From Candidatus Binatia bacterium (GTDB lineage Bacteria; Desulfobacterota; Binatia; HRBIN30): a stretch of DNA of 64,000 nucleotides. The stretch covers positions 715,304 through 779,303 of the forward strand of contig JAOAHD010000007.1 in assembly GCA_026415395.1 (NCBI GenBank), given 5' to 3'. The notes under the pieces were generated by a model. The model made no database searches. It was not told where the DNA came from and saw only the letters and a list, made by a program, of their open reading frames with translations. Both the position numbers and the translations under genes were made by a program. Position 1 is the stretch's first letter, and each line of letters starts with the position of its first letter. This document shows positions 11,309 to 54,461 of the stretch, one piece after another.

Positions 11309-12715
11309 ATGGACTTACGCTTTGCCTCCGCTGCTGACCTGGCGCGCATGATTCGCCGTGGGGATCTCTCGCCAGTAGAACTGATGCAGTTCACCCTCGA
11401 GCGCCTGGAACAAGTGAACCCGAAGCTCAATGCCTTCGTGGCGCAGCATCCTGCGGAGCGTCTGCTAGAGGCCGCGCGCGCGGTGGAGACGCGCCTTGCA
11501 CGCAAAGAAGAAGTGGGCCCTTTGGCGGGACTGCCGCTTGGCGTCAAAGATTTGGAAGACACTGTCGGCTTACCCACGACGCACGGCTCACTCCTGTTTC
11601 GTGATCGTGTGGCCACGCGGGATACGATCCAAGTGGCGCGCCTGAAACAAGCGGGCGCAATCGTGGTGGGCAAAACCAATACGCCAGAGTTTGGGTACAC
11701 CGCGTTTTCTAGTAATCGCGTCTTCGGAGCCACGCGCAATCCATGGGATTTAGAACGAACACCCGGTGGCTCCAGCGGGGGATCATCTGCAGCCGTTGCT
11801 GGTGGCCTGGTGCCCCTCGCGACTGCCTCCGACGGTGGCGGTTCGGTGCGTATCCCGGCGGCCTTTACTGGCTTGGTCGGGCTCAAGCCGTCGCAAGGGA
11901 GGATTCCATGGGGGCCGGAAGAGGCGTTGCGGTTCTCGCACTGCATTGTCAGCGGGCCGCTCACACGGACGGTGGAGGATGCTGCCTTGTGGCTCGACGT
12001 TACTGTCGGCCCTCACCCCGAGGACCCCTTCTCGCTGCCGCACCCAGGTATCTCGTACCAAGAGGTGATTCGTCGGGAGCCGCCGCGGCTGCGCATCGGC
12101 TACTCGCTCACGCTTGGGTATGCCCGTCCGGCGCGGGCGGTCGAGAACGCTGTGGAGGCGGCGCTGCGCGCGCTCGAGAAGGCGGGCCACGTGGTGGAGC
12201 CCGTGGAGGTGAAGCTTGAGGATATCGTGCTCGACTGGGCACGCCTCATGTCGGTGGAAGACTACGCGTTTCACGGCGCGCACTTTCATGACGAAGAACT
12301 CCTCGACCCTGGCTACCGCATGGGTGTCGAGTTGGCCAAGCACTTGCGGCCGGCGGACTTGGGCGATGTGTTGCGGCAGCGTGCGCGCCTGGTGTCCACC
12401 TTGGAGGAAATTTTGGCGCGCTACGATCTTCTGGCCACGCCGACGACGGCTGTTGAACCGTTCGCGGCGGAGGGCCCCATTCCCTTGGAGGTCGACGGCG
12501 AACCCGTCAGCACGCCGGGCGGTGCGATCGCCTACACGTATCCGTTCAATTTCTCGGGTCACCCGGCAATCTCCTTGCGTGCCGGACTTAGTCCAGCCGG
12601 CCTGCCCATTGGGATTCAGTTCGTGGCGCCACGGTTTCGCGAGGATTTGCTTTTGCAAGTGGCGGCCGAATTCGAGCAAATTTTGCCGTGGGCAAAAGAT
12701 TGGCCTCAGCTTTGA
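11309..12715 (+). CDS. amidase signature family enzyme (GatA-like)
   Basis: The amidase signature GGSSGGSSAAVAGG..ASDGGGSVRIPA is present and the protein is about 468 aa. Confidence 0.85.
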   Translation: MDLRFASAADLARMIRRGDLSPVELMQFTLERLEQVNPKLNAFVAQHPAERLLEAARAVETRLARKEEVGPLAGLPLGVKDLEDTVGLPTTHGSLLFRDRVATRDTIQVARLKQAGAIVVGKTNTPEFGYTAFSSNRVFGATRNPWDLERTPGGSSGGSSAAVAGGLVPLATASDGGGSVRIPAAFTGLVGLKPSQGRIPWGPEEALRFSHCIVSGPLTRTVEDAALWLDVTVGPHPEDPFSLPHPGISYQEVIRREPPRLRIGYSLTLGYARPARAVENAVEAALRALEKAGHVVEPVEVKLEDIVLDWARLMSVEDYAFHGAHFHDEELLDPGYRMGVELAKHLRPADLGDVLRQRARLVSTLEEILARYDLLATPTTAVEPFAAEGPIPLEVDGEPVSTPGGAIAYTYPFNFSGHPAISLRAGLSPAGLPIGIQFVAPRFREDLLLQVAAEFEQILPWAKDWPQL

Positions 12716-13140
12716 CGAGAGAACCCGTGGGCAAATTGCAGCGCGTGGCGAGGTATCGGGTGCTGTTTGCCGATTGCGACCCGATGCGAATCATGTACTA
12801 CGGGAGCTATTTTCGACTGTTCGAGCTCGGCCGCGCGGAGCTGTTTCGAACGCTTGGCCATCCCTTCCCGAAGTACATTGCGAGCGGTCTTTATCTAGCC
12901 GTGATCGAAACCCATTGCCGTTACGTGCGACCGGCAGTGTACGACGACGAGTTGGAAGTTCTTGCCGGCATCGTAGATGTGAGCGGAGTGAGGCTGCGCA
13001 TCGATTACGAGATTCGCAAGCCAGGGGGCGAGCTTGTTGCTACGGGTTTTACGCGGCACGCAGTAGTCAACGAGCAGGGTCGCCCGGTGCGCCTCCCGAT
13101 AGAGCTGCGGCGCATGCTGTCGGCAGGCACGTCGACCTAA
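12688..13140 (+). CDS. 4HBT/YbgC-like acyl-CoA thioesterase
   Basis: It has the hotdog-fold motif ..YRVLFADCDPMRIMYYGSYFRLFE.. and is about 140 aa. The exact start is uncertain because it overlaps the amidase 3' end. Confidence 0.6.
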   Translation: MGKRLASALTREPVGKLQRVARYRVLFADCDPMRIMYYGSYFRLFELGRAELFRTLGHPFPKYIASGLYLAVIETHCRYVRPAVYDDELEVLAGIVDVSGVRLRIDYEIRKPGGELVATGFTRHAVVNEQGRPVRLPIELRRMLSAGTST

Positions 13141-13248
13141 GAGCAACCTCAAGCCTGGCGGCCGCCGGGTCGGGCTGGGCCTACTTTACTGGTCGGTGTT
13201 CCCACAGTAGAAAAGCTGCACCACCAGCACGCAAACGGAGGCAGTGTC

Positions 13249-14406
13249 ATGGCAGCCGGCAATCGTGTGTTCGTCATCGGAGTCGGGATGACCAAGTTCG
13301 AACGCTGCGAGCGCGATGCCCGTGAGTTGGCCCAGGAGGCCGTGCTTGAGGCTCTAAAAGACGCAAGCATCGATTATGACAAAATCGAGCAAGCGTTTTG
13401 CGGCTACATCAACGGGATGAGTTGCCTCGGCCAGATCAGTTTGTACGGCATCGGCATGACCGGGATCCCCGTTTACAACGTCAACAATAACTGCGCCACC
13501 GGGTCCACCGCCTTGTACTTGGCGTATAACGCGGTGCGCTCGGGAATGAACCAGGCCGTGTTGGCTCTCGGCTTTGAGAAGATGCAAAAGGGACCCCTCG
13601 AAAACCAGCTCAAAGGCCTCGAACAGCTCAAAGAAGAAGCGGAGAAAGAAAATAAACCTCCAATTGCCGCGCGGATGTTTGGCGATGCGGGGCGCGATCA
13701 CATGGAAAAGTACGGCACGAAACCTGAAACTTTCGCCAAGATTGCCGTAAAAAATCACCGCCACTCGGTGAACAATCCGCGGGCGCAGTACCAGCAGGCA
13801 TTCTCCCTCGAGGAAATTCTCGCCTCTCGCATGGTCTATGACCCGCTGACCTTGCTGCAATGCTGTCCGACCAGCGACGGCGCCGCTGCAGCAGTGGTCG
13901 TGTCTGAGGAGTTTCTCCGCCGTCATCCGCATCCAGGTGCGATAGAAATTTGCGCGATGGCGATGGCCACGGATCGCATGGAGGATTGGTCGCGCGGTCG
14001 CATCGGCATGGTGGGGATGGGTATGACGGAACGGGCTGCACGTGCTGTGTACGAGCAAAGCGGCATCGGGATCGAAGACGTGCAGGTCGTGGAGCTCCAC
14101 GACTGCTTCAGCACAAATGAACTGATCACGTACGAAGGCCTCGGCATGTGCAAGGAAGGGGAAGGAGAGAAGCTGGTTGAAGACGAGGCAACGACGTACG
14201 GGGGCAAGTGGGTGGTGAACCCCTCGGGTGGCTTGTTGTCGAAAGGACACCCGCTCGGTGCGACTGGCTTGGCGCAGTGTGCAGAGTTGGTATGGCAGTT
14301 GCGCGGGCAAGCGGACCGCCGGCAAGTGGAGAACGCCCGCATTGGCTTGCAGCACAACCTCGGTCTCGGCGGGGCCTGCGTGGTTGCGATGTATAAGCGC
14401 CCGTAG
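13249..14406 (+). CDS. SCP2/SCPx-type thiolase (lipid-transfer-protein-like 3-ketoacyl-CoA thiolase)
   Basis: The N-terminus NRVFVIGVGMTKF and the nucleophile region NNNCATGSTAL are present, along with the C-terminal ..NPSGGLLSKGHPLGATG.. . Confidence 0.8.
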   Translation: MAAGNRVFVIGVGMTKFERCERDARELAQEAVLEALKDASIDYDKIEQAFCGYINGMSCLGQISLYGIGMTGIPVYNVNNNCATGSTALYLAYNAVRSGMNQAVLALGFEKMQKGPLENQLKGLEQLKEEAEKENKPPIAARMFGDAGRDHMEKYGTKPETFAKIAVKNHRHSVNNPRAQYQQAFSLEEILASRMVYDPLTLLQCCPTSDGAAAAVVVSEEFLRRHPHPGAIEICAMAMATDRMEDWSRGRIGMVGMGMTERAARAVYEQSGIGIEDVQVVELHDCFSTNELITYEGLGMCKEGEGEKLVEDEATTYGGKWVVNPSGGLLSKGHPLGATGLAQCAELVWQLRGQADRRQVENARIGLQHNLGLGGACVVAMYKRP

Positions 14407-14625: not shown

Positions 14626-16545
14626 CTAGCTCAGACCGAGGGCGGTGGCTGCGCGGTAGGTGAGGAAACTGGCGGCCCACGCCAGCGCGAGCATGTAGCT
14701 GAAGGCAAAGGCCGGCCAGCGCCAACTGCCTGTTTCCCGAGCCATGACGACCATCGTGGAGGTACACTGCAGGGCGAAGACAAAGAACACCATGAGGCTC
14801 AGTGCCGTAGGTAAACTAAAGTGTCGGCGCCCGGTTACTGGATCCACATCGCGGCGCAGTGCCTCGCGGAGTCCGTCATAGTCATCAGGATTGCCGACGG
14901 CGTGGATCTGCGCCAAGGTCGACACAATCACCTCACGCGCGGCTAAACTCGCCACGAGCCCCACGCCGATTTTCCAGTCGAAGCCAAGCGGCTGGATCAT
15001 GGGTTCAATGGCATGGCCGATACGGCCTGCCACGCTCTCTTCCAAATTCGCACGCGCTTGCTCAGCGGTAGACGCGCCAGGGATTTGCTGCGCCCGCGGA
15101 AAGGAGAGCAGTGCCCACATCACGATGCTGACCGCCAAGATGATGGTTCCTGCTCGCTTGAGAAATGCCGATGTGCTGCCCCAAACCTGCCGGAGCAATA
15201 AACGAAGGGTGGGCCACCGGTAGGGGGGCAATTCCATGTAAAATACCGAGGGCGTGCCTCGTAAGAGCGTCGAACTCAGCAGAGCTGCCGACGCCAGCGC
15301 AGTGCACGCGCCTAAAAGATAGAGGCCGAACATCACCAGCCCCTGGAGCCCAATCGGACCCCAGATCGCGCGCGCGGGCACGAATGCTGCGATCAACAAA
15401 GTGTAAACTGGCAACCTTGCGGAACAGGTCATGAAGGGAGCCACCAAGATGGTAGCCAGCCGCTCTCGTGGGGATGCAATCGTGCGGGTAGCCATGATTC
15501 CGGGCACCGCACAAGCAAAACATGAAAGTAGGGGCACGAAGCTCCGACCTTGCAGTCCGACCCAACCCATCACCCGGTCGACGACAAAGGCCGCGCGCGC
15601 CATGTAACCAAGGTCATTGAGCAAATGGATAAACGTGAACAGGATCACGATTTGCGGGAGAAAGACCAGCACCGACCCGACGCCAGTAACTACGCCGCCA
15701 GCCCAGAGCTCTGTGAGCCAACCCGGTGGCAGTACATCACGGCACAGTGCAGCGAGCTCCGTAAACAGTGCGTCGATGGCATCCATGGCCGGTGCCGCCC
15801 ACGTGAAGATGCTTTGGAAGAAAATCAGCAGCACCACGGCAAGCGTAAGAAGCCCGTACACCGGATGGAGCAACCAACGATCGATCCGGTCCGTGCGGCG
15901 GTCCGGTGCGAGGCGATCGGCGCCGACAGCCTTGCACACCGCGTCTACCCAGGCGAAGCGGCGAACTGGGTCTTCGTCGAGCGGAGGGCGTACTTTTGGC
16001 CGTGGCCATTTCCAGGGCTCGCGCACCAGCCGGATCACTTGATCGATCCCCACTCCTCGGTGGCCGACCACGCCGACAACCGGGATGCCCAGTTGACGCG
16101 ATAAGCCAGCGATGTCGAGCCGGCCGCCGCGAGCGCGAACCTCGTCGATCATGGTCAACACCAGGACCATCGGACGCCGATGTGCAAGAAGCTGCCGCAC
16201 CAATCCCAAACCGCGCCGCAGTGTGGTCGCATCGGCCACTGCAACCACGCCGTCCAGCTCGGGCTCTCCTGCCAGCTTGCCGTCGAGCACCTTTTCCACA
16301 ATGCGTTCGTCTGGCGACTCACCGCGCAGGGCGTACGTGCCCGGCAAATCCAAAATGATCACCTGGCCATTGCTGCCGCGCAGTGTGCCCTCGCGACGCT
16401 CCACGGTTACTCCAGCGTAGTTGCCGACCCGCGCACTCGAGCCAGTGAGTGCATTGAACAGCGTGGTTTTGCCCGCGTTCGGAGAACCCACGAGCGCGAC
16501 TCGGACCGGGCGTAAGGGTTGGGCAGCAGGTGCTGTGGCCGTCAT
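14626..16545 (-). CDS. feoB: ferrous iron transport protein B
   Basis: It has an N-terminal G-domain ([20 protein letters not shown]..) followed by a polytopic permease, and is about 639 aa. Confidence 0.9.
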
Positions 16546-16874
16546 GGTGCGGGTGGATCGTCCTCCAAAATCACACGGAACCCCCAGAGTTGTCGGCGGC
16601 GGAAGCAGAGCCTGGTTCCGCGGATTTCGATTTCCACTGGGTCGCCCAGCGGTGCGCGGCGCACGATTTTGAGCCGTGTGCCGGGCACGAAGCCGAGGTC
16701 GAGCAAACGATGCGAAACGTTTCGTGCCAAGTTGTCACTCAAACGAGCCCAACGGCCGACGGGTAAGTCGTCCAGAGGGATGCTGCCTTCCTCGCGACAA
16801 TGCTTTTCGGACACCTTGGCTGACCGTAGTTGCGATCTCTTGCCCGCGCGGCCGCTTCGCTGCGCGGTTGCCAC
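16542..16874 (-). CDS. feoA: FeoA domain protein
   Basis: A FeoA SH3-like segment ..[13 protein letters not shown]...[10 protein letters not shown].. is present. The stop overlaps the feoB start. The true start is probably internal, since FeoA is usually about 75-85 aa. Confidence 0.6.
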
Positions 16875-16894
16875 GGAACCGTAGCGTCAAGAGT

Positions 16895-18505
16895 TCAGCC
16901 TAGCCACCGGTGGGCGTCGATCATCTTTTCTTGAATCGGTACCCCGAGTGGGCACTTGCCAGCGCAAGGCGCAGCGCACGAAACGCAAAGCGAGGCATTC
17001 CGCTCGAGTTGAGCGTAAAGGCGACGTCCCTCGTACTCCCAGTGGTAGTCTTTGGCATACATGCGGTAACGCAAGATGTCGTGAATCGGCAGTTCGTGCT
17101 CGCAGGAATCCAGGCAAACCCCGCAGTGCGGCTGGCAATAATCGCCCGAAACGAGTTGGTCATACCGGCGCAGCAAGGCCACATCTTCGGGCCGCAACTG
17201 TGTGCCCGAGGCGTACAAGTATTCGTCGACCTGCCGCTGCTCGTAAATGGAAATCACCAAACAAGAGACGTTCGGGTTCGACAACACCCAGCGAAAGGCT
17301 GCTTGAGCGTACGAGTCAGCCTCGCGGCGAAACTCGGCAAGGTTGGTGTGCTTAGCCCCCTTGAGTGTCTTCATGGCCACCACCCCGACGTCTCGCGATT
17401 TGGCTTTCGCGAGGATGTGATCGAAGTTCGGCCACATGCCAAAGTGATAGGCCAACATGAGCACGTCGAAACGGCCCGAGTCGATCGCGGCGTTGGCAAT
17501 CTCCTCCAAGTTCGGCGTATGCGTGCTGACTCCCAAAAACCGGACCTTGCCTTGTTCCTTGAGGCGATCGAACGCTTCGTGGATGTTAGGTGCAAACAGC
17601 CGGTCGAGGCGGTCGCACGAATGGATATGAATGAGGTCGACGTAGTCGGTTTGCAGACGCCGCAAACTTCCCTCGACTGCCTCGATAATTTTGGGAACCG
17701 GCGTATCGTTCGGTAGGTGGCCGTCAGCCACGCAAAACTTGGTGGCCACGAACAGCTTGTCTCGATGCCCTTTCATGGCCTCGCCAAGTACACGCTCGGA
17801 GTTGGTGTCGGCGTAGTCGGGTGCTGTGTCGAAGTAGTTGATTCCGCGCTCGATCGCATACCGCGCCACGTTGGCGTTGTTGATGCGCGATGAGCCGAGA
17901 GAAATATCGGACACCATGGCGCCGGTGCGTCCGAGGCGGCGATAACTGCGCACGCGGGCTTCGCTCCACTCCGGTCGCGCCTGCGGGGCAATGGTTTCGA
18001 CCTTGGCGCTGAAGAAGTCACGCCCAACGGCAATCCAGCCGCGATTGCGGGCGACAGCCACCCCGACCCCGCCGATGATTGCGGCCATCTCCGTTCCTGC
18101 GGCTGCGACCACGCGGAGCGCTTGACGCCGGCCGAGCTGGTGCGCTTCGGCAGTGTCGAGGGAGCGAGCGATTTCGATCCAGCGTTCTCTTCCGCCCAAG
18201 CCGCAGGGCAGACACACAGGCACCCGCCAAGCGAAAAACTGCAAGGCCATTGCCGCAGAGAAGCACACCAACGGGATGGCGAGATGCCACCAGGGCAGCA
18301 AACTTCGCTGCACGCCTTCGACGAGATCGTGCAACAGATTCCCTCCCAGCCACCAAGCGAGGAAGAGCCCGAGCGCGTACAGAGCCCAAACATAGGGCCG
18401 CTTGATTTGTACGAAGCGGAGCTGAAGCTCGCCGCCGCAAGCACTGCACTGTTGCTGGTCCATAGCCGCCTCCTGTGTTCTTGGCAGTGTACGGCGGGGG
18501 CGCAC
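16895..18505 (-). CDS. aldo/keto reductase with C-terminal Fe-S Cys cluster and N-terminal zinc-ribbon/2-TM extension
   Basis: The AKR core has ..YRRLGRTGAMVSDISLGS.. and ..YVDLIHIHS.. . The C-terminus is Cys-rich (CQPHCGVCLDSC ... CVSCAAPCAGKCP), typical of Fe-S-containing AKRs. The first ~170 aa contain CSACGG...CLPCGLGG flanking two hydrophobic helices. Confidence 0.65.
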   Translation of the reverse strand: MRPRRTLPRTQEAAMDQQQCSACGGELQLRFVQIKRPYVWALYALGLFLAWWLGGNLLHDLVEGVQRSLLPWWHLAIPLVCFSAAMALQFFAWRVPVCLPCGLGGRERWIEIARSLDTAEAHQLGRRQALRVVAAAGTEMAAIIGGVGVAVARNRGWIAVGRDFFSAKVETIAPQARPEWSEARVRSYRRLGRTGAMVSDISLGSSRINNANVARYAIERGINYFDTAPDYADTNSERVLGEAMKGHRDKLFVATKFCVADGHLPNDTPVPKIIEAVEGSLRRLQTDYVDLIHIHSCDRLDRLFAPNIHEAFDRLKEQGKVRFLGVSTHTPNLEEIANAAIDSGRFDVLMLAYHFGMWPNFDHILAKAKSRDVGVVAMKTLKGAKHTNLAEFRREADSYAQAAFRWVLSNPNVSCLVISIYEQRQVDEYLYASGTQLRPEDVALLRRYDQLVSGDYCQPHCGVCLDSCEHELPIHDILRYRMYAKDYHWEYEGRRLYAQLERNASLCVSCAAPCAGKCPLGVPIQEKMIDAHRWLG

Positions 18506-18583
18506 GCAAGTCTAGCCAGAGGGGTTGGCGCACTGCGGCACGGTGGACACGTGCGTTGGCGACCGTTCGATTGCTCGCGAGAG

Positions 18584-19573
18584 CTAGCGACGACTCGCTG
18601 ACCACCTTGTGGCCGCCGTGTCAAGCCAACGCTGCAGCCGTTCGGCCCAAGGCAAGGCGCTCATCAACGCTCGTTTGAGTTCAGGGAGTGCCTGCCGAGC
18701 GGTCAAACGTCCGGCGTGGATCGCTTCACGGCTCAAGTGAAAGTCGAACAGGCCGAGACGAACAGGAACGTGAATCAGGAAGTCCGGTGGGTCATCACGC
18801 AGGCGGGCAGCGGCAATCCGCGCCTGCACGATAGTGCTGGCGCGCGAGAGGATTTCAACGAGGCCAAGCTCGGTGGCGGGGGTGCCGTTGGTTTCGGGTA
18901 GCAACCGGCTGGTCGAAAGCGGCGGTTTCTTCCAGCGCCGGCGCAAGCGCTCGCTCCATTGCTCGGTTAGGCTCGAGCGTGTCACCCGGCGTGGCAAAAC
19001 CGCTGGGTGAACTTGCAGCACACTCACGGCAATCACAAAGTCCGCCCCCAGAGCGCGGGCCACGTCTGCGGGGATGGGGTTCACGAGGCCACCATCCACC
19101 AGAATCCGCGGCCCCAAGCGCTGCGGGGTAAACAAGCCTGGAATGGCAATGCTGGCCCGCACAGCCTCCAGGACCGAACCAGATTGCAACACGACCTCCT
19201 CGCCCGTGTCGAGGTCCGTCGCCACTGCAGCAAACGCGATCGGCAATGCTTCGATCGTCGTGCCCAGGTGCGGGCGAACGAGCTCTAATGAGCGCCGCCC
19301 TTCGAGCAATCCGGCTTGCGGCCAAATGGGGTCGAACAAACGCAACACACGGGCGCGGGTCAGTTCGCACATGGTATTGCGGAATGCCTCCAGTTGCCCA
19401 TTGGCAAATGCCGCCCCGACCATTGCTCCGGCACTGGTACCAGCCACACAGCGAATCGGTAGCCCGGCGGCGACGAGCTCTTCGAGCACACCCACGTGAG
19501 CCATTCCGGCCGCGCCGCCACCACTGAGTGCGACGCCGATTTTCACAGAAGAAGTCGAGGTAAGGGCGGTCAT
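18584..19573 (-). CDS. patatin-like phospholipase
   Basis: It has the GxGxxG oxyanion motif GVALSGGGAAG and the GxSxG motif GTSAG. Confidence 0.8.
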   Translation of the reverse strand: MTALTSTSSVKIGVALSGGGAAGMAHVGVLEELVAAGLPIRCVAGTSAGAMVGAAFANGQLEAFRNTMCELTRARVLRLFDPIWPQAGLLEGRRSLELVRPHLGTTIEALPIAFAAVATDLDTGEEVVLQSGSVLEAVRASIAIPGLFTPQRLGPRILVDGGLVNPIPADVARALGADFVIAVSVLQVHPAVLPRRVTRSSLTEQWSERLRRRWKKPPLSTSRLLPETNGTPATELGLVEILSRASTIVQARIAAARLRDDPPDFLIHVPVRLGLFDFHLSREAIHAGRLTARQALPELKRALMSALPWAERLQRWLDTAATRWSASRR

Positions 19574-19606
19574 CGGCGCTCTCTATGCCAAAAGCACCCC
19601 GCGATG

Positions 19607-20335
19607 TCACTTCGTCGCGAGGCCGCTGATGGTCGCGAGCAAGCGGTCGACGTCGATGCTGGTTTCCGTCACCTGCGCCGCCTCCTGCGGGTCGAGCAAC
19701 GCGTTTTCCGAGTAAGGCACCGCGCCGAGTGGCTCCCCAAGCCACGCCCGCAACGCGTCAACATTGGTTCTTTGAGCCACCTCCGTAACTGGGATGGGGT
19801 GGTTCCAAACGTAGCCGAGCCAACGCGCCCCATGCATGCGAATGTTTTGTACTGTGAGCAACGCGTGATTTAGAGCGCCCAACCGATTGGCCACCACGAC
19901 GAGCGCATGCGCTCCAAGAGCAAGGGCGAGATCGGCAAAGGTCAGTTGCTCGGTGAGCGGTACCAGCCAACCACCTGCGCCTTCGACTAGCGCAAGATCG
20001 TAACTTCCAGCATGCGATGTAATGTGCTGGCAAAGCCAGCGAAAGTCGATCGATCGTCCCTCCCGCTGAGCAGCAATTGCCGGAGCCAGCGGCTCGGCGA
20101 AAACGTAGGGACAGACCTCTTCCAGTGGTTGCACGGCACCGGCAAATCCGCGCAGACGGACGGCATCCGCCGGCACCAGCTTGCCATCGGTGCCCGTGCT
20201 GCAGCCAGTTTCGGCTGGCTTGAACACACCGACCCGCAAACCCCGCGCATGCAGCGCAGCCACCAACCCGCAGCTCACGGTTGTTTTGCCGACGCCGGTG
20301 TCTGTGCCCGTAACAAAGACAATACGTGTGCTCAT
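19607..20335 (-). CDS. bioD: dethiobiotin synthetase
   Basis: The P-loop VFVTGTDTGVGKT is present and the length is about 242 aa. Confidence 0.85.
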   Translation of the reverse strand: MSTRIVFVTGTDTGVGKTTVSCGLVAALHARGLRVGVFKPAETGCSTGTDGKLVPADAVRLRGFAGAVQPLEEVCPYVFAEPLAPAIAAQREGRSIDFRWLCQHITSHAGSYDLALVEGAGGWLVPLTEQLTFADLALALGAHALVVVANRLGALNHALLTVQNIRMHGARWLGYVWNHPIPVTEVAQRTNVDALRAWLGEPLGAVPYSENALLDPQEAAQVTETSIDVDRLLATISGLATK

Positions 20336-20374
20336 GGAGTCTCGCTCGTTAAAACGTAGTAGGGCGAAAACGCC

Positions 20375-21745
20375 TCATGGGCGGCTCTGCTCTGTAACCT
20401 CCTGGATGCTCTCCCGCGCGACTGTGCACAGCTCTGCCAATTGATCGGCGGAGATGCAAAGCGGAGGCATAAGTACGATCACGTTACCAAGCGGGCGCAA
20501 AATAACGCCACGCCGCCGTGCCGCGAGAATCACTCGATGGCCGATGCGCAGCCCTGCGGGATAGGGCGCGCGGGTTTCCCGATCGGCCACGAGTTCAATT
20601 CCGACCATGAGCCCGCACTGCCGGACGTCGCCCACGTGCGGTAGCGGCGCAATCTCTTCGGCGAGGAGCCGTTCCAACTCCGCGGCCCGAGTCCTCACGC
20701 GATCCAGCACGTTTTCTTGCTCGAACACGGCAAGACTCGCGATCCCCACTGCACAGCCAAGTGGATTCCCGGTGTAGGTGTGCCCGTGGAAGAACGCCCG
20801 AAAAGCATCGTATGGCCCCAGAAACGCGGTGAAAATCTCCTCCCGCACGAGCGTGGCCGCGAGCGGCAAGTAGCCGCCCGAAATGCCCTTGCCTAGGCAC
20901 ATCAGGTCAGGCTCGACGGCGGCGTGTTCCACCGCGAACAAGCGCCCGGTGCGTCCGAAGCCCGTGGCCACTTCGTCGCAAATGAGCAGCACGCCATGGT
21001 GCGCGGTTAGCTCGCGGAGCGCGCGCAAATAGGCGGGATCGTGCGTCCACATTCCTGCTGCGCCTTGTACCAGTGGCTCGACGATCAATGCTGCCAGCCG
21101 AGCCCCGTGACGGCGAAACAATGCCTCCGCCTCAGCAATGGCTGCGTCGAGCGCTGCTGCGGCATCGAGCCCCCGCTGCCACCGGAATACATGGGGAGGG
21201 TCCAGCTTGTGGCAGGGGAATAAGAGTGGCTTGTGGAAACGGTGAAACGCCTCGGAGTAGCCGAGGCTCATCGCCCCAATGGTGTCGCCGTGATACGCCT
21301 CGGTAAGCGACACAAAGTCTGTTCGCTGCGGCTCGCCGACCAACTGCCAGTATTGCGCCGCAATTTTCAGCGCTACCTCAACGGCGGTCGCCCCCGAGTC
21401 GGAATAGAAAACCCGCGTGAGCGATGCAGGTGTGCGTTGGACAAGTTCCTTGGCAAGCGCAATAGCGGGCACGTTGCTGAGACCGAGCATGGTCGAGTGG
21501 GCCACCAAGTTGGCCTGCTCCTGCAACGCAGCGTCGAGCACCGGATGCCGGTGCCCGTGCACGTTGCACCAGAGCGAGGCGACGCCGTCGAGATAGCGGT
21601 TGCCGTGCACGTCGAAGAGGTAGGGTCCTTCGCCGCGCTCGATGATGAGCGGCGATTCGTTCAGCCACTCCGCCATTTGGGTGAACGGGTGCCAAAGAAA
21701 ACGGTGGTCCCATTCGGCTAACGTGTCAGGAGCGATCCGGGCCAT
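20375..21745 (-). CDS. bioA: adenosylmethionine-8-amino-7-oxononanoate aminotransferase
   Basis: It is a class-III aminotransferase with ..RGEGPYLFDVHGNRYLDG..WCNVHGH.. . The start is at the ATG of MARIAPD.. (21745); the alternative at 21790 is less likely. Confidence 0.85.
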   Translation of the reverse strand: MARIAPDTLAEWDHRFLWHPFTQMAEWLNESPLIIERGEGPYLFDVHGNRYLDGVASLWCNVHGHRHPVLDAALQEQANLVAHSTMLGLSNVPAIALAKELVQRTPASLTRVFYSDSGATAVEVALKIAAQYWQLVGEPQRTDFVSLTEAYHGDTIGAMSLGYSEAFHRFHKPLLFPCHKLDPPHVFRWQRGLDAAAALDAAIAEAEALFRRHGARLAALIVEPLVQGAAGMWTHDPAYLRALRELTAHHGVLLICDEVATGFGRTGRLFAVEHAAVEPDLMCLGKGISGGYLPLAATLVREEIFTAFLGPYDAFRAFFHGHTYTGNPLGCAVGIASLAVFEQENVLDRVRTRAAELERLLAEEIAPLPHVGDVRQCGLMVGIELVADRETRAPYPAGLRIGHRVILAARRRGVILRPLGNVIVLMPPLCISADQLAELCTVARESIQEVTEQSRP

Positions 21746-22913
21746 TTTGCTCTTCCTCGCTGAAAACCTTGGTGAACGCGCGTGCGGCAAACTCGAGATC
21801 GCGTGGCGAGTGCGTTGCCATCACGGTGATGCGCAGCCGTGATGTGCCCTCGGGTACGGTGGGCGGACGAATTCCTTGCACCCACACACCCTCCTCGAGC
21901 AAGCGCGCAGAGATCCGCATGGTGCGTGCCGGGTCACCGATCAGCACCGGGAGGATATGGCTCGCGTACGGGATGGTAGGGATGCCGGCGGCGCGAAGAG
22001 CACGCTGAAGGGAGGCAGCATTGGCAGAGAGTTGCTGCCGCAAATCGGGCCGGCTGCGCACCAGGCGCACGGCCGCCAGCGCTGCACCGACTACCGGTGG
22101 GGGCAAGGCCGTGGTGTACACCAAAGAGCGTGCGCGGTTGATCAACAGTTGGATCAAAGATCTCGCACCAGCGACATACGCACCGAAACAACCTAAGGCT
22201 TTTCCCAAGGTTCCCATTTGGACCGCAACCCGGCCGTGCAGTCCAAGCTCTTCGACCAGACCCGCGCCGGTGGGACCGAGAACCCCAGTGGCATGCGCTT
22301 CGTCGACCATGACCCACGCTCCAAAGCGCTGGGCCACTTCGCAAATCTCGACCAATGGGGCGCGATCGCCATCCATGCTGAACACCGAATCCGTGACGAT
22401 CAAGCGGTGGCGAGCAGGCGTGTGCGCAAGTTCGTACCCTAATCGGTCGACATCATTGTGCGGGTAGACCACCACGCGTGCACGGGAGAGCCGGCAGCCG
22501 TCGATGATGCTGGCATGATTCAACGCATCGCTGAACACGGCATCGCCCTCGCCAACGAGGGCGGCAATCGTGCCGACGTTGGCGTGGTAGCCGGAATTGA
22601 ACAGCACGGCCGCTTCCGTACCCTTCCAGCGGGCAAGTTCGGATTCGAGTTCCTCGTGTAGCGCGAGCGAGCCGGAGATCAGCCGCGACGCCCCCGCTCC
22701 CACCCCCCAGCGGGCTGCAGCATCGGCGGCCGCAGCCACGAGCTCCGGGTGATTTGCGAGCCCGAGGTAGTTGTTCGAACACATGAGCAAAGTGCGCCGG
22801 CCGGCCAGATCCACCCACGGAGCGACAGCGCTGCCGACGGGCCGCAGCGCGCGCAACAATCCTCGCTCCTGAAATGCTGCTAGGGTCTCGCTCGCGGCTC
22901 GTTCCAAATCCAT
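21726..22913 (-). CDS. bioF: 8-amino-7-oxononanoate synthase
   Basis: It is an alpha-oxoamine synthase with ..CSNNYLGLANHPEL.. and a PLP-lysine region. Confidence 0.8.
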   Translation of the reverse strand: MDLERAASETLAAFQERGLLRALRPVGSAVAPWVDLAGRRTLLMCSNNYLGLANHPELVAAAADAAARWGVGAGASRLISGSLALHEELESELARWKGTEAAVLFNSGYHANVGTIAALVGEGDAVFSDALNHASIIDGCRLSRARVVVYPHNDVDRLGYELAHTPARHRLIVTDSVFSMDGDRAPLVEICEVAQRFGAWVMVDEAHATGVLGPTGAGLVEELGLHGRVAVQMGTLGKALGCFGAYVAGARSLIQLLINRARSLVYTTALPPPVVGAALAAVRLVRSRPDLRQQLSANAASLQRALRAAGIPTIPYASHILPVLIGDPARTMRISARLLEEGVWVQGIRPPTVPEGTSRLRITVMATHSPRDLEFAARAFTKVFSEEEQNGPDRS

Positions 22914-54266: not shown

Positions 54267-54461
54267 ATGTTTGGATTAGGGGTTCCCGAACTCATCATCA
54301 TCCTGGTGGTGGCGTTGATTATCTTTGGGCCGGGTAAACTTCCGGAGATTGGGGGAGCACTCGGCCGTGGTATCCGCGACTTCAAGCGCAGCTTTGAAGG
54401 TCGAGACGAAGAGCCGAAAAAAGTCGAGAACAACGGCGAAAAAGGCGGCCCTGCGGCGTAG
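54267..54461 (+). CDS. tatA: twin-arginine translocase subunit TatA/E
   Basis: An RBS AAGGAGG precedes it. It reads [43 protein letters not shown]. Confidence 0.85.

Follow-up and report, generated by a model that had tools for sequence, protein, structure and literature searches.

An iron–sulfur aldo/keto reductase with an internal twin-arginine motif: a candidate dual Sec/Tat membrane protein family

Gene model and domain architecture at the locus

We analyzed computationally a 64,000-nucleotide stretch of DNA from a Candidatus Binatia bacterium (hereafter the window) and describe a minus-strand gene that encodes a predicted membrane-anchored aldo/keto reductase (AKR) with an iron–sulfur (Fe-S)-type C-terminal tail and that is followed, on the same strand, by feoA and feoB. 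The open reading frame (ORF) of 536 amino acids (aa) given in a preliminary description of this DNA is present both in the ORF list and in the sequence (16895..18505), but its length did not hold. The coding sequence most likely starts at the ATG at 18463 (16895..18463, minus strand; stop codon 16895–16897) and would yield 522 aa rather than 536, because an AGGAGG ribosome-binding site (RBS) lies 5 nt upstream of this ATG (18469–18474), all members of an alignment of 21 full-length homologues (64–88% identity to the window protein) begin at the corresponding Met, and the GTG at 18505 falls within a conserved promoter-like element. This element, TAGACT-N17-TACACT (18486..18514, minus strand, upstream of the AKR coding sequence), takes the form TnGACT-N17-TACACT in the window and in two related loci (L001 and L002); it scored under the threshold of our sigma-70 promoter consensus scan, which returned no sites. 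Its presence hints that transcription of the AKR gene, perhaps along with that of feoAB, is separate from that of the patatin gene upstream. A protein identical to that of the window (100%, P0001) is annotated as 'aldo/keto reductase [Candidatus Binatia bacterium]'.

The frame runs uninterrupted by any stop codon from the N-terminal membrane part through the AKR domain, and the three parts named in the preliminary description (CxxC, two transmembrane helices (TM) and CxxC; an AKR barrel; a Cys-rich tail) are upheld within one ORF by the alignment and, for the barrel, by Pfam. More than 120 clusters of ~520-aa proteins retain this architecture in full, as do at least 74 of 80 loci drawn from assemblies of Binatia, Myxococcota and other metagenome-assembled genomes. 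The fusion is maintained over the 51–88% identity that these loci span, and the frame is continuous in those that are not cut by contig ends. Conserved residues in the 21-homologue alignment also span the junction between the membrane part and the barrel (W143, F151, V155 and W166). No internal start ahead of the AKR domain is conserved, and between the second CxxC and the twin-arginine motif there is no ATG, GTG or TTG preceded by an RBS, apart from an unsupported TTG (L89). We therefore read the locus as one fused gene encoding one membrane-tethered Fe-S AKR, not as two coupled genes. The alternative raised in the preliminary description is that the N-terminus is encoded by a small gene of its own, for a membrane or zinc-ribbon protein, with translational coupling to an AKR gene whose start would lie near 17980–18000. 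Only the modular appearance of the protein speaks for this alternative; set against the continuous frame and the conservation across the junction, on which we rejected it, it is extremely improbable.

Residues ~172–438 (17150..17950, minus strand) match Pfam PF00248 (Aldo_ket_red) with 116.4 bits against a cutoff of 24 (E = 1.7e-33) and correspond to the (β/α)8 barrel fold of the AKR superfamily. The catalytic tetrad D212, Y217, K242 and H281, assigned through the motifs DTAxxY, TK and IH, is invariant in the 21 homologues, and because it is intact it argues for AKR-type redox chemistry on a carbonyl or alcohol group. Named AKR equivalogs in NCBIfam (YdjG, DkgA/B, Kv-beta, YghZ and KidO) gave at most 54 bits against cutoffs of 244–550, the best being 53.8 bits against a cutoff of 550. 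Where AKRs usually have the cofactor-contact motifs GxSN, Q and E-N, the alignment shows GVSTH, A and E-Y; L-galactose dehydrogenase, which binds NAD+, has similar substitutions.

The barrel leads into a ferredoxin-like tail with eight cysteines (C443, C447, C450, C454, C493, C496, C500 and C504; 16952..17137, minus strand). Their spacing, Cx3Cx2Cx3C...Cx2Cx3Cx3CP, is exactly that of the preliminary description, and all eight are invariant in the 21 homologues. The tail matches Fer4_7 weakly (16.9 bits against a cutoff of 27), and PF12838 or PF13187 is precomputed on some homologues. This conservation argues for two putative electron-passing Fe-S clusters.

Ahead of the barrel, the N-terminal part of ~170 aa contains the CxxC, two-helix and CxxC arrangement noted previously and, in addition, a third hydrophobic segment behind an invariant twin-arginine motif, both of which had been overlooked. 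All of its elements lie on the minus strand. The first CxxC knuckle (C6 and C9; 18437..18448; at least 90% conserved) is predicted on the cytoplasmic side and is directly followed by a strand in the AlphaFold2 (AF2) model (residues 12–20). TM1 comprises residues ~22–44 (18332..18400; hydrophobicity minimum 26–44, AF2 helix 22–48) and is connected to TM2 (residues ~59–79; 18227..18289; hydrophobicity minimum 61–79, AF2 helix 59–76) by a short, conserved and predicted periplasmic loop, HDLVEGxQRSLLPxW (residues 45–58; 18290..18331). In this loop E49, G50, L56 and P57 are invariant and H45, R53 and S54 at least 90% conserved in the 21 homologues. The second CxxC knuckle (C84, invariant, and C87, at least 90% conserved; 18203..18214) is again predicted on the cytoplasmic side, next to an AF2 strand at residues 78–84; the strands beside the two knuckles have pLDDT values of 70–86. 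A variable linker separates this knuckle from the twin-arginine motif.

The four N-terminal cysteines are invariant or nearly so among the 21 homologues. Across the wider set of loci both CxxC pairs are present in 40 of 80 and absent from 34, and are therefore an accessory of one subfamily; Myxococcota-type members devoid of these cysteines keep a variant of the loop, EG.DRS.LP. In the Binatia-type members, the hairpin is probably clamped on its cytoplasmic side by the two knuckles, which would form a Zn or Fe(Cys)4 site. Pfam matched no family and no zinc-ribbon model to residues 1–168, and a word-index protein search with residues 1–110 alone returned no match.

Internal twin-arginine motif and relatives with N-terminal Tat signals

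The segment between hairpin and barrel carries an internal twin-arginine (RR) motif, G111-R112-R113-Q-A-L116-R117 (18113..18133, minus strand), in which R112, R113 and L116 are invariant across the 21 homologues. It is followed by a Gly/Ala-rich, weakly hydrophobic third helix (residues 118–138) and a basic R139-N-R141 (18041..18112, minus strand, helix and basic residues together). The whole segment, GRRQALR + VVAAAGTEMAAIIGGVGVAVA + RNR, resembles a signal for the twin-arginine translocation (Tat) pathway, in which the consensus S/T-R-R-x-F-L-K precedes an uncharged h-region and a basic c-region. The RR pair stands at residues 112–113, after two helices, and not at the N-terminus as in ordinary Tat substrates.

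Conservation of this arrangement extends over the family. The RR motif lies 61–65 aa ahead of the AKR domain in 64 of the 65 loci that could be scored, with versions such as GRRRFLxG, TDRRGFL and TRRxxLR, and the succession of two hydrophobic helices, RR and third segment is kept in the scorable loci. Hydrophobicity was expressed as simple 19-residue sums on the Hessa scale, as distinct from a calibrated ΔG predictor: on this scale the third helix of the window protein scores 4.3 against 2.0 for TM1 and 2.5 for TM2, the median for this helix across the family is 3.35, compared with 0.95 and 1.5 for the other two, and it ranks lowest in hydrophobicity in 48 of 64 loci. Binatia-type members share a conserved (G/A)RNRGW immediately behind it, where R or K is found in most of the remaining members. 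A 64-aa gene of the tatA family (TatA/TatB/TatE; 54267..54461, plus strand), which would encode one component of the Tat translocase, lies elsewhere in the window and matches PF02416 (E = 4.4e-20); tatC was not detected in the window with the E. coli TatC query.

An exhaustive search of 1.84 billion representative proteins returned 391 matches below 1e-30, of which the best 149 were inspected. About 100 of these 149 representatives are Fe-S AKRs of 385–470 aa with canonical N-terminal Tat signals (for instance MNRRQFLRD, MKRRDFI, LSRRNFIKK and ISRRDFLKK) and 33–57% identity, and they match the window protein from residue ~160 on, to ~521. In an alignment of 43 such relatives the RR pair and the eight tail cysteines are invariant or nearly so. 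Because the relatives carry equivalent N-terminal Tat signals, we interpret the internal RR of the window protein as an ancestral Tat signal to which a hairpin has been added. Our literature searches found no characterized Fe-S or Tat-exported AKR.

The genomic surroundings of the Tat-signal relatives were scanned at 82 loci, using a 12-sequence subset since the 43-sequence alignment was too diverse. A same-strand cluster recurs among them (L083–L093, L098, L157, L160 and L162; for example L092:7872-12609), in which the Fe-S AKR is accompanied, in this order, by DUF6599 (12 loci), a DUF362 protein that carries a Tat signal as well (5 loci) and a membrane polyferredoxin (Fer4_5 + Fer4) with an internal RR (3 loci). 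These apparent operons suggest a possible electron supply through the membrane, and their polyferredoxin is similar to the one that Tooke et al. 2017 (PMC5449189) list among the dual Sec/Tat proteins. None of these three partners occurs in the window or in L001–L080. Two further proteins, P0228 (729 aa) and P0238 (775 aa), are tandem-duplicated Fe-S AKRs with two AKR and Cys-tail units per chain and no signal peptide; presumably, they are cytoplasmic members of a wider Fe-S AKR family.

The feoAB neighbourhood and flanking genes

Downstream of the AKR gene, feoA (16542..16814, minus strand; PF04023, E = 7e-14) and feoB (14626..16545, minus strand) follow on the same strand, as described before and as supported by Pfam and NCBIfam; FeoB matches TIGR00437 with 464 bits, above cutoff, as well as the Pfam models FeoB_N, Gate and FeoB_C. 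The 20-bp gap previously given between the AKR gene and feoA is correct for the longest feoA ORF, which would start at 16874, but the start conserved in relatives, the GTG at 16814, leaves a spacer of 80 nt from the AKR stop (16815..16894, minus strand). A scan found no terminator-like site in this spacer, and read-through transcription is therefore possible. Aligned with L001–L003, the spacer contains a conserved ACGCTACGGTT, present in all four genomes. It adjoins the site of a perfect palindrome, TTGAAAAnGCTTTTCAA, that stands directly after the AKR stop in L001:8560-8590 and L002:8570-8600 and is deleted in the window (~16880–16894). The palindrome and ACGCTACGGTT may constitute an operator or promoter for feoAB.

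Searches with the window FeoA and FeoB (tblastn) recovered the AKR–feoAB adjacency in three of the 80 loci (L001–L003, the closest genomes, at 87–88% identity) besides the window; neither feoA nor feoB lies within 7–8 kb at any of the 77 other loci of the three-helix family or of the 82 loci of Tat-signal relatives. Of the two findings that the preliminary description named as counter-evidence, one was obtained: feoAB neighbours were never seen outside one lineage, but orthologues retain the N-terminal extension. In L004, L006 and L009 the AKR gene is directly followed by a convergent thiolase gene, the conserved downstream neighbour in Binatia genomes that have no feoAB insertion. In the window this thiolase-like gene (Thiolase_N, Thiolase_C_1; 13249..14406) lies beyond feoB, and together with an amidase gene (PF01425) it occupies 11309..14406 on the plus strand, convergent to feoB. 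This synteny suggests that feoAB was inserted between the AKR and thiolase genes in one lineage; base composition gave no sign of a foreign origin for feoAB. The Fur box sought upstream of the AKR gene did not emerge: measured against the E. coli consensus, which may not apply to this phylum, the best match there is 9/19, and an 11/19 match at 16796, close to where feoA starts, is no better than chance, since the window contains 84 matches of this quality.

On the other side of the AKR gene, 18584..22913 (minus strand) holds a gene for an RssA-like phospholipase of the patatin type, whose 191 bits fall short of the equivalog cutoff of 272, and then bioD-, bioA- and bioF-like ORFs. The bioD-like ORF matches Pfam AAA_26; the putative bioA and bioF genes are named from a reading of their sequences. 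L001 and L002 also carry bioD and patatin genes upstream of the AKR gene.

Among the Tat-signal relatives, P0134 is encoded directly after a TonB-dependent receptor–ExbB–ExbD–TonB cluster on the same strand (L081:1576-7203), a context with no second case among the 161 other loci.

A Sec/Tat dual-insertion reading and its comparison with known systems

Certain membrane proteins depend on Sec to insert the initial helices and on Tat to insert the final one (Keller et al. 2012, PMC3471235; Tooke et al. 2017, PMC5449189). Two features of the final helix drive the handover, namely its low hydrophobicity and the positive charges that follow it (Tooke et al. 2017, PMC5449189). We propose, with a probability of roughly 0.6, that the window protein belongs to a family of Tat-exported Fe-S AKRs and has gained a two-helix hairpin that makes it an anchored, periplasm-facing redox enzyme, its feoAB neighbourhood being specific to one lineage. 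In most relatives the Tat signal is N-terminal, and placement of the hairpin ahead of it would have rendered the RR internal. Sec/YidC would insert TM1 and TM2 co-translationally, so that the N-terminus and the two CxxC pairs stay cytoplasmic; the AKR barrel and the ferredoxin-like tail would also fold and gain their Fe-S clusters in the cytoplasm. Tat would then recognize the RR and the weakly hydrophobic third helix and move the folded domain to the periplasmic side, and the three helices would keep the enzyme anchored. There it could act on a carbonyl- or alcohol-type substrate, with the two Fe-S clusters passing electrons to or from a partner in the periplasm or the membrane. The evidence is stronger for the biogenesis route than for this catalytic role.

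The same features might be accommodated by a cytoplasmic Fe-S AKR that the hairpin tethers to the inner face of the membrane, with a third segment that does not cross it and an RR that is a relic or has another role. The weak hydrophobicity of the third segment, the basic residues that flank it on both sides and the below-threshold scores of Tat hidden Markov models would fit such a placement, as would the cytoplasmic location of NAD(P)H, the usual AKR cofactor. A relic, however, would not be expected to persist across such wide divergence as an invariant RR whose spacing to the AKR domain is constant, and the closest simpler relatives carry textbook N-terminal Tat signals. Weak hydrophobicity combined with a basic C-terminal flank is, moreover, the signature of Tat-dependent final helices (PMC5449189), and we regard the cytoplasmic placement as unlikely. 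A further reading is the partnership with Feo put forward in the preliminary description: the reductase, co-expressed with feoAB from one promoter, would supply Fe(II) to FeoB by reducing ferric iron or ferric chelates, or would sense redox to gate Feo. In its favour, the genes share a strand and a terminator-free 80-nt spacer, the arrangement is found in the window, L001, L002 and L003, a conserved promoter-like element precedes the AKR gene, and an Fe-S domain on the periplasmic side would be suitably located for such a role. The distant relative P0134 follows a TonB-dependent receptor–ExbB–ExbD–TonB cluster, albeit as a single case. Growth of methanogens on pyrite induces cytoplasmic AKRs together with feoAB, although the authors of that study propose no direct FeoAB role (PMC9124975).

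These points have to be set against the absence of feoA and feoB from the 77 other family loci and the 82 loci of Tat-signal relatives, the synteny that places feoAB as an insertion between the AKR gene and the convergent thiolase gene, and the failure to find a Fur box in the scan described above. The spacer also has a conserved sequence of its own, with a palindrome in L001 and L002, and feoAB may be under its own control. A Feo partnership is hence improbable, and a combined version is more doubtful still, in which the three-helix Fe-S AKRs would be a fifth Sec/Tat family recruited with feoAB as a periplasmic ferric or ferric-chelate reductase, with the Cys4 site as a metal or redox sensor. 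We consider the feoAB neighbourhood to be lineage-specific; co-transcription is possible locally but would not be a property of the family, and for annotation purposes the adjacency should not be read as a functional link.

Several points weigh against the dual-insertion reading. The motif of the window protein, GRRQALR, lacks the consensus Phe; excised segments scored 15.1, 13.7 and 10.8 bits with TIGR01409, the curated Tat-signal model, against a cutoff of 16.7, and the window's own segment matched only formate_TAT, with 9.2 bits. The ranking of the helices depends on the simple scale sums mentioned above. The whole argument is computational: sequence comparison shows the fusion, the domains, the conserved motifs, the homology to Tat-signal relatives and the lack of a conserved Feo linkage, and Tat dependence, topology, metal content, substrate and electron partner are inferred. 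No conserved operon or electron partner was found for the three-helix subfamily, whose neighbours are variable (gyrA/gyrB/dnaN, a thioredoxin-domain protein, LOG and NAD synthase), the commonest, a housekeeping gene, occurring at 10 of 80 loci. The feoAB adjacency is kept in four genomes of its lineage, which leaves room for a local functional link, although adjacency is all that speaks for one. Finally, a classical AKR requires NAD(P)H, and the periplasm contains none, so that free NAD(P)H is an unlikely co-substrate at the predicted location; a tightly bound cofactor or another chemistry would then be needed.

If the dual-insertion reading is correct, the implications concern both biogenesis and catalysis. 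Four membrane-protein families are known to need both Sec and Tat, and a widespread fifth candidate would offer a natural test of the handover rules, for which its three-TM layout and its 'before' and 'after' relatives, with N-terminal and internal Tat signals respectively, would be useful. The relatives as a whole form a large, unstudied family of Fe-S AKRs predicted to reside outside the cytoplasm, where, lacking free NAD(P)H, they would require an unusual cofactor strategy or an equally unusual electron partner.

Glucose–fructose oxidoreductase of Zymomonas mobilis is periplasmic, Tat-exported and holds its NADP tightly bound. It provides a precedent for a nicotinamide-dependent periplasmic oxidoreductase whose cofactor is carried across the membrane in the folded protein, but it has a GFO/IDH/MocA Rossmann fold with neither Fe-S clusters nor a membrane anchor, and the likeness is one of analogy only. 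With the classical NAD(P)H-dependent AKRs (AKR11/13/14, L-galactose dehydrogenase 9w6y/7ezi and the AKR6 Kv-beta proteins) the window protein has the catalytic tetrad and PF00248 in common; it differs from them in its putative Fe-S and membrane modules, in its predicted extracytoplasmic location and in scoring far under the equivalog cutoffs. The soluble Tat-signal Fe-S AKRs (P0123 and P0134–P0268, annotated only as 'aldo/keto reductase') are closer, sharing the Asp/Tyr/Lys(/His) site, the motif AMKT(L)xGA, the eight-Cys tail and an RR at a distance before the barrel equivalent to that of the internal RR. They have neither the two-helix hairpin nor the Cys4 site, and their signals are N-terminal and in several cases look cleavable.

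The dual Sec/Tat families published so far comprise Rieske proteins with 3 or 5 transmembrane domains (TMDs; Sco2149 has 3), the haem–MoCo protein Sco3746, the polyferredoxin Q1NSB0 and YkuE (PMC3471235, PMC5449189); AKRs are not mentioned among them in Tooke et al. 2017 (PMC5449189). In common with these proteins, the window protein has an even number of Sec-type helices, then a conserved RR directly ahead of a weakly hydrophobic last helix, basic residues behind this helix and a C-terminal cofactor-binding domain, here predicted to bind Fe-S clusters, and its layout is that of the 3-TMD actinobacterial Rieske protein Sco2149. Its putative exported domain, by contrast, is an AKR barrel with a ferredoxin-like tail, and the predicted cytoplasmic Cys4 clamp is without counterpart in the published families. 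The window protein thus displays each sequence-level feature of the dual Sec/Tat class, belongs to none of the four listed families and is a candidate for a new one.

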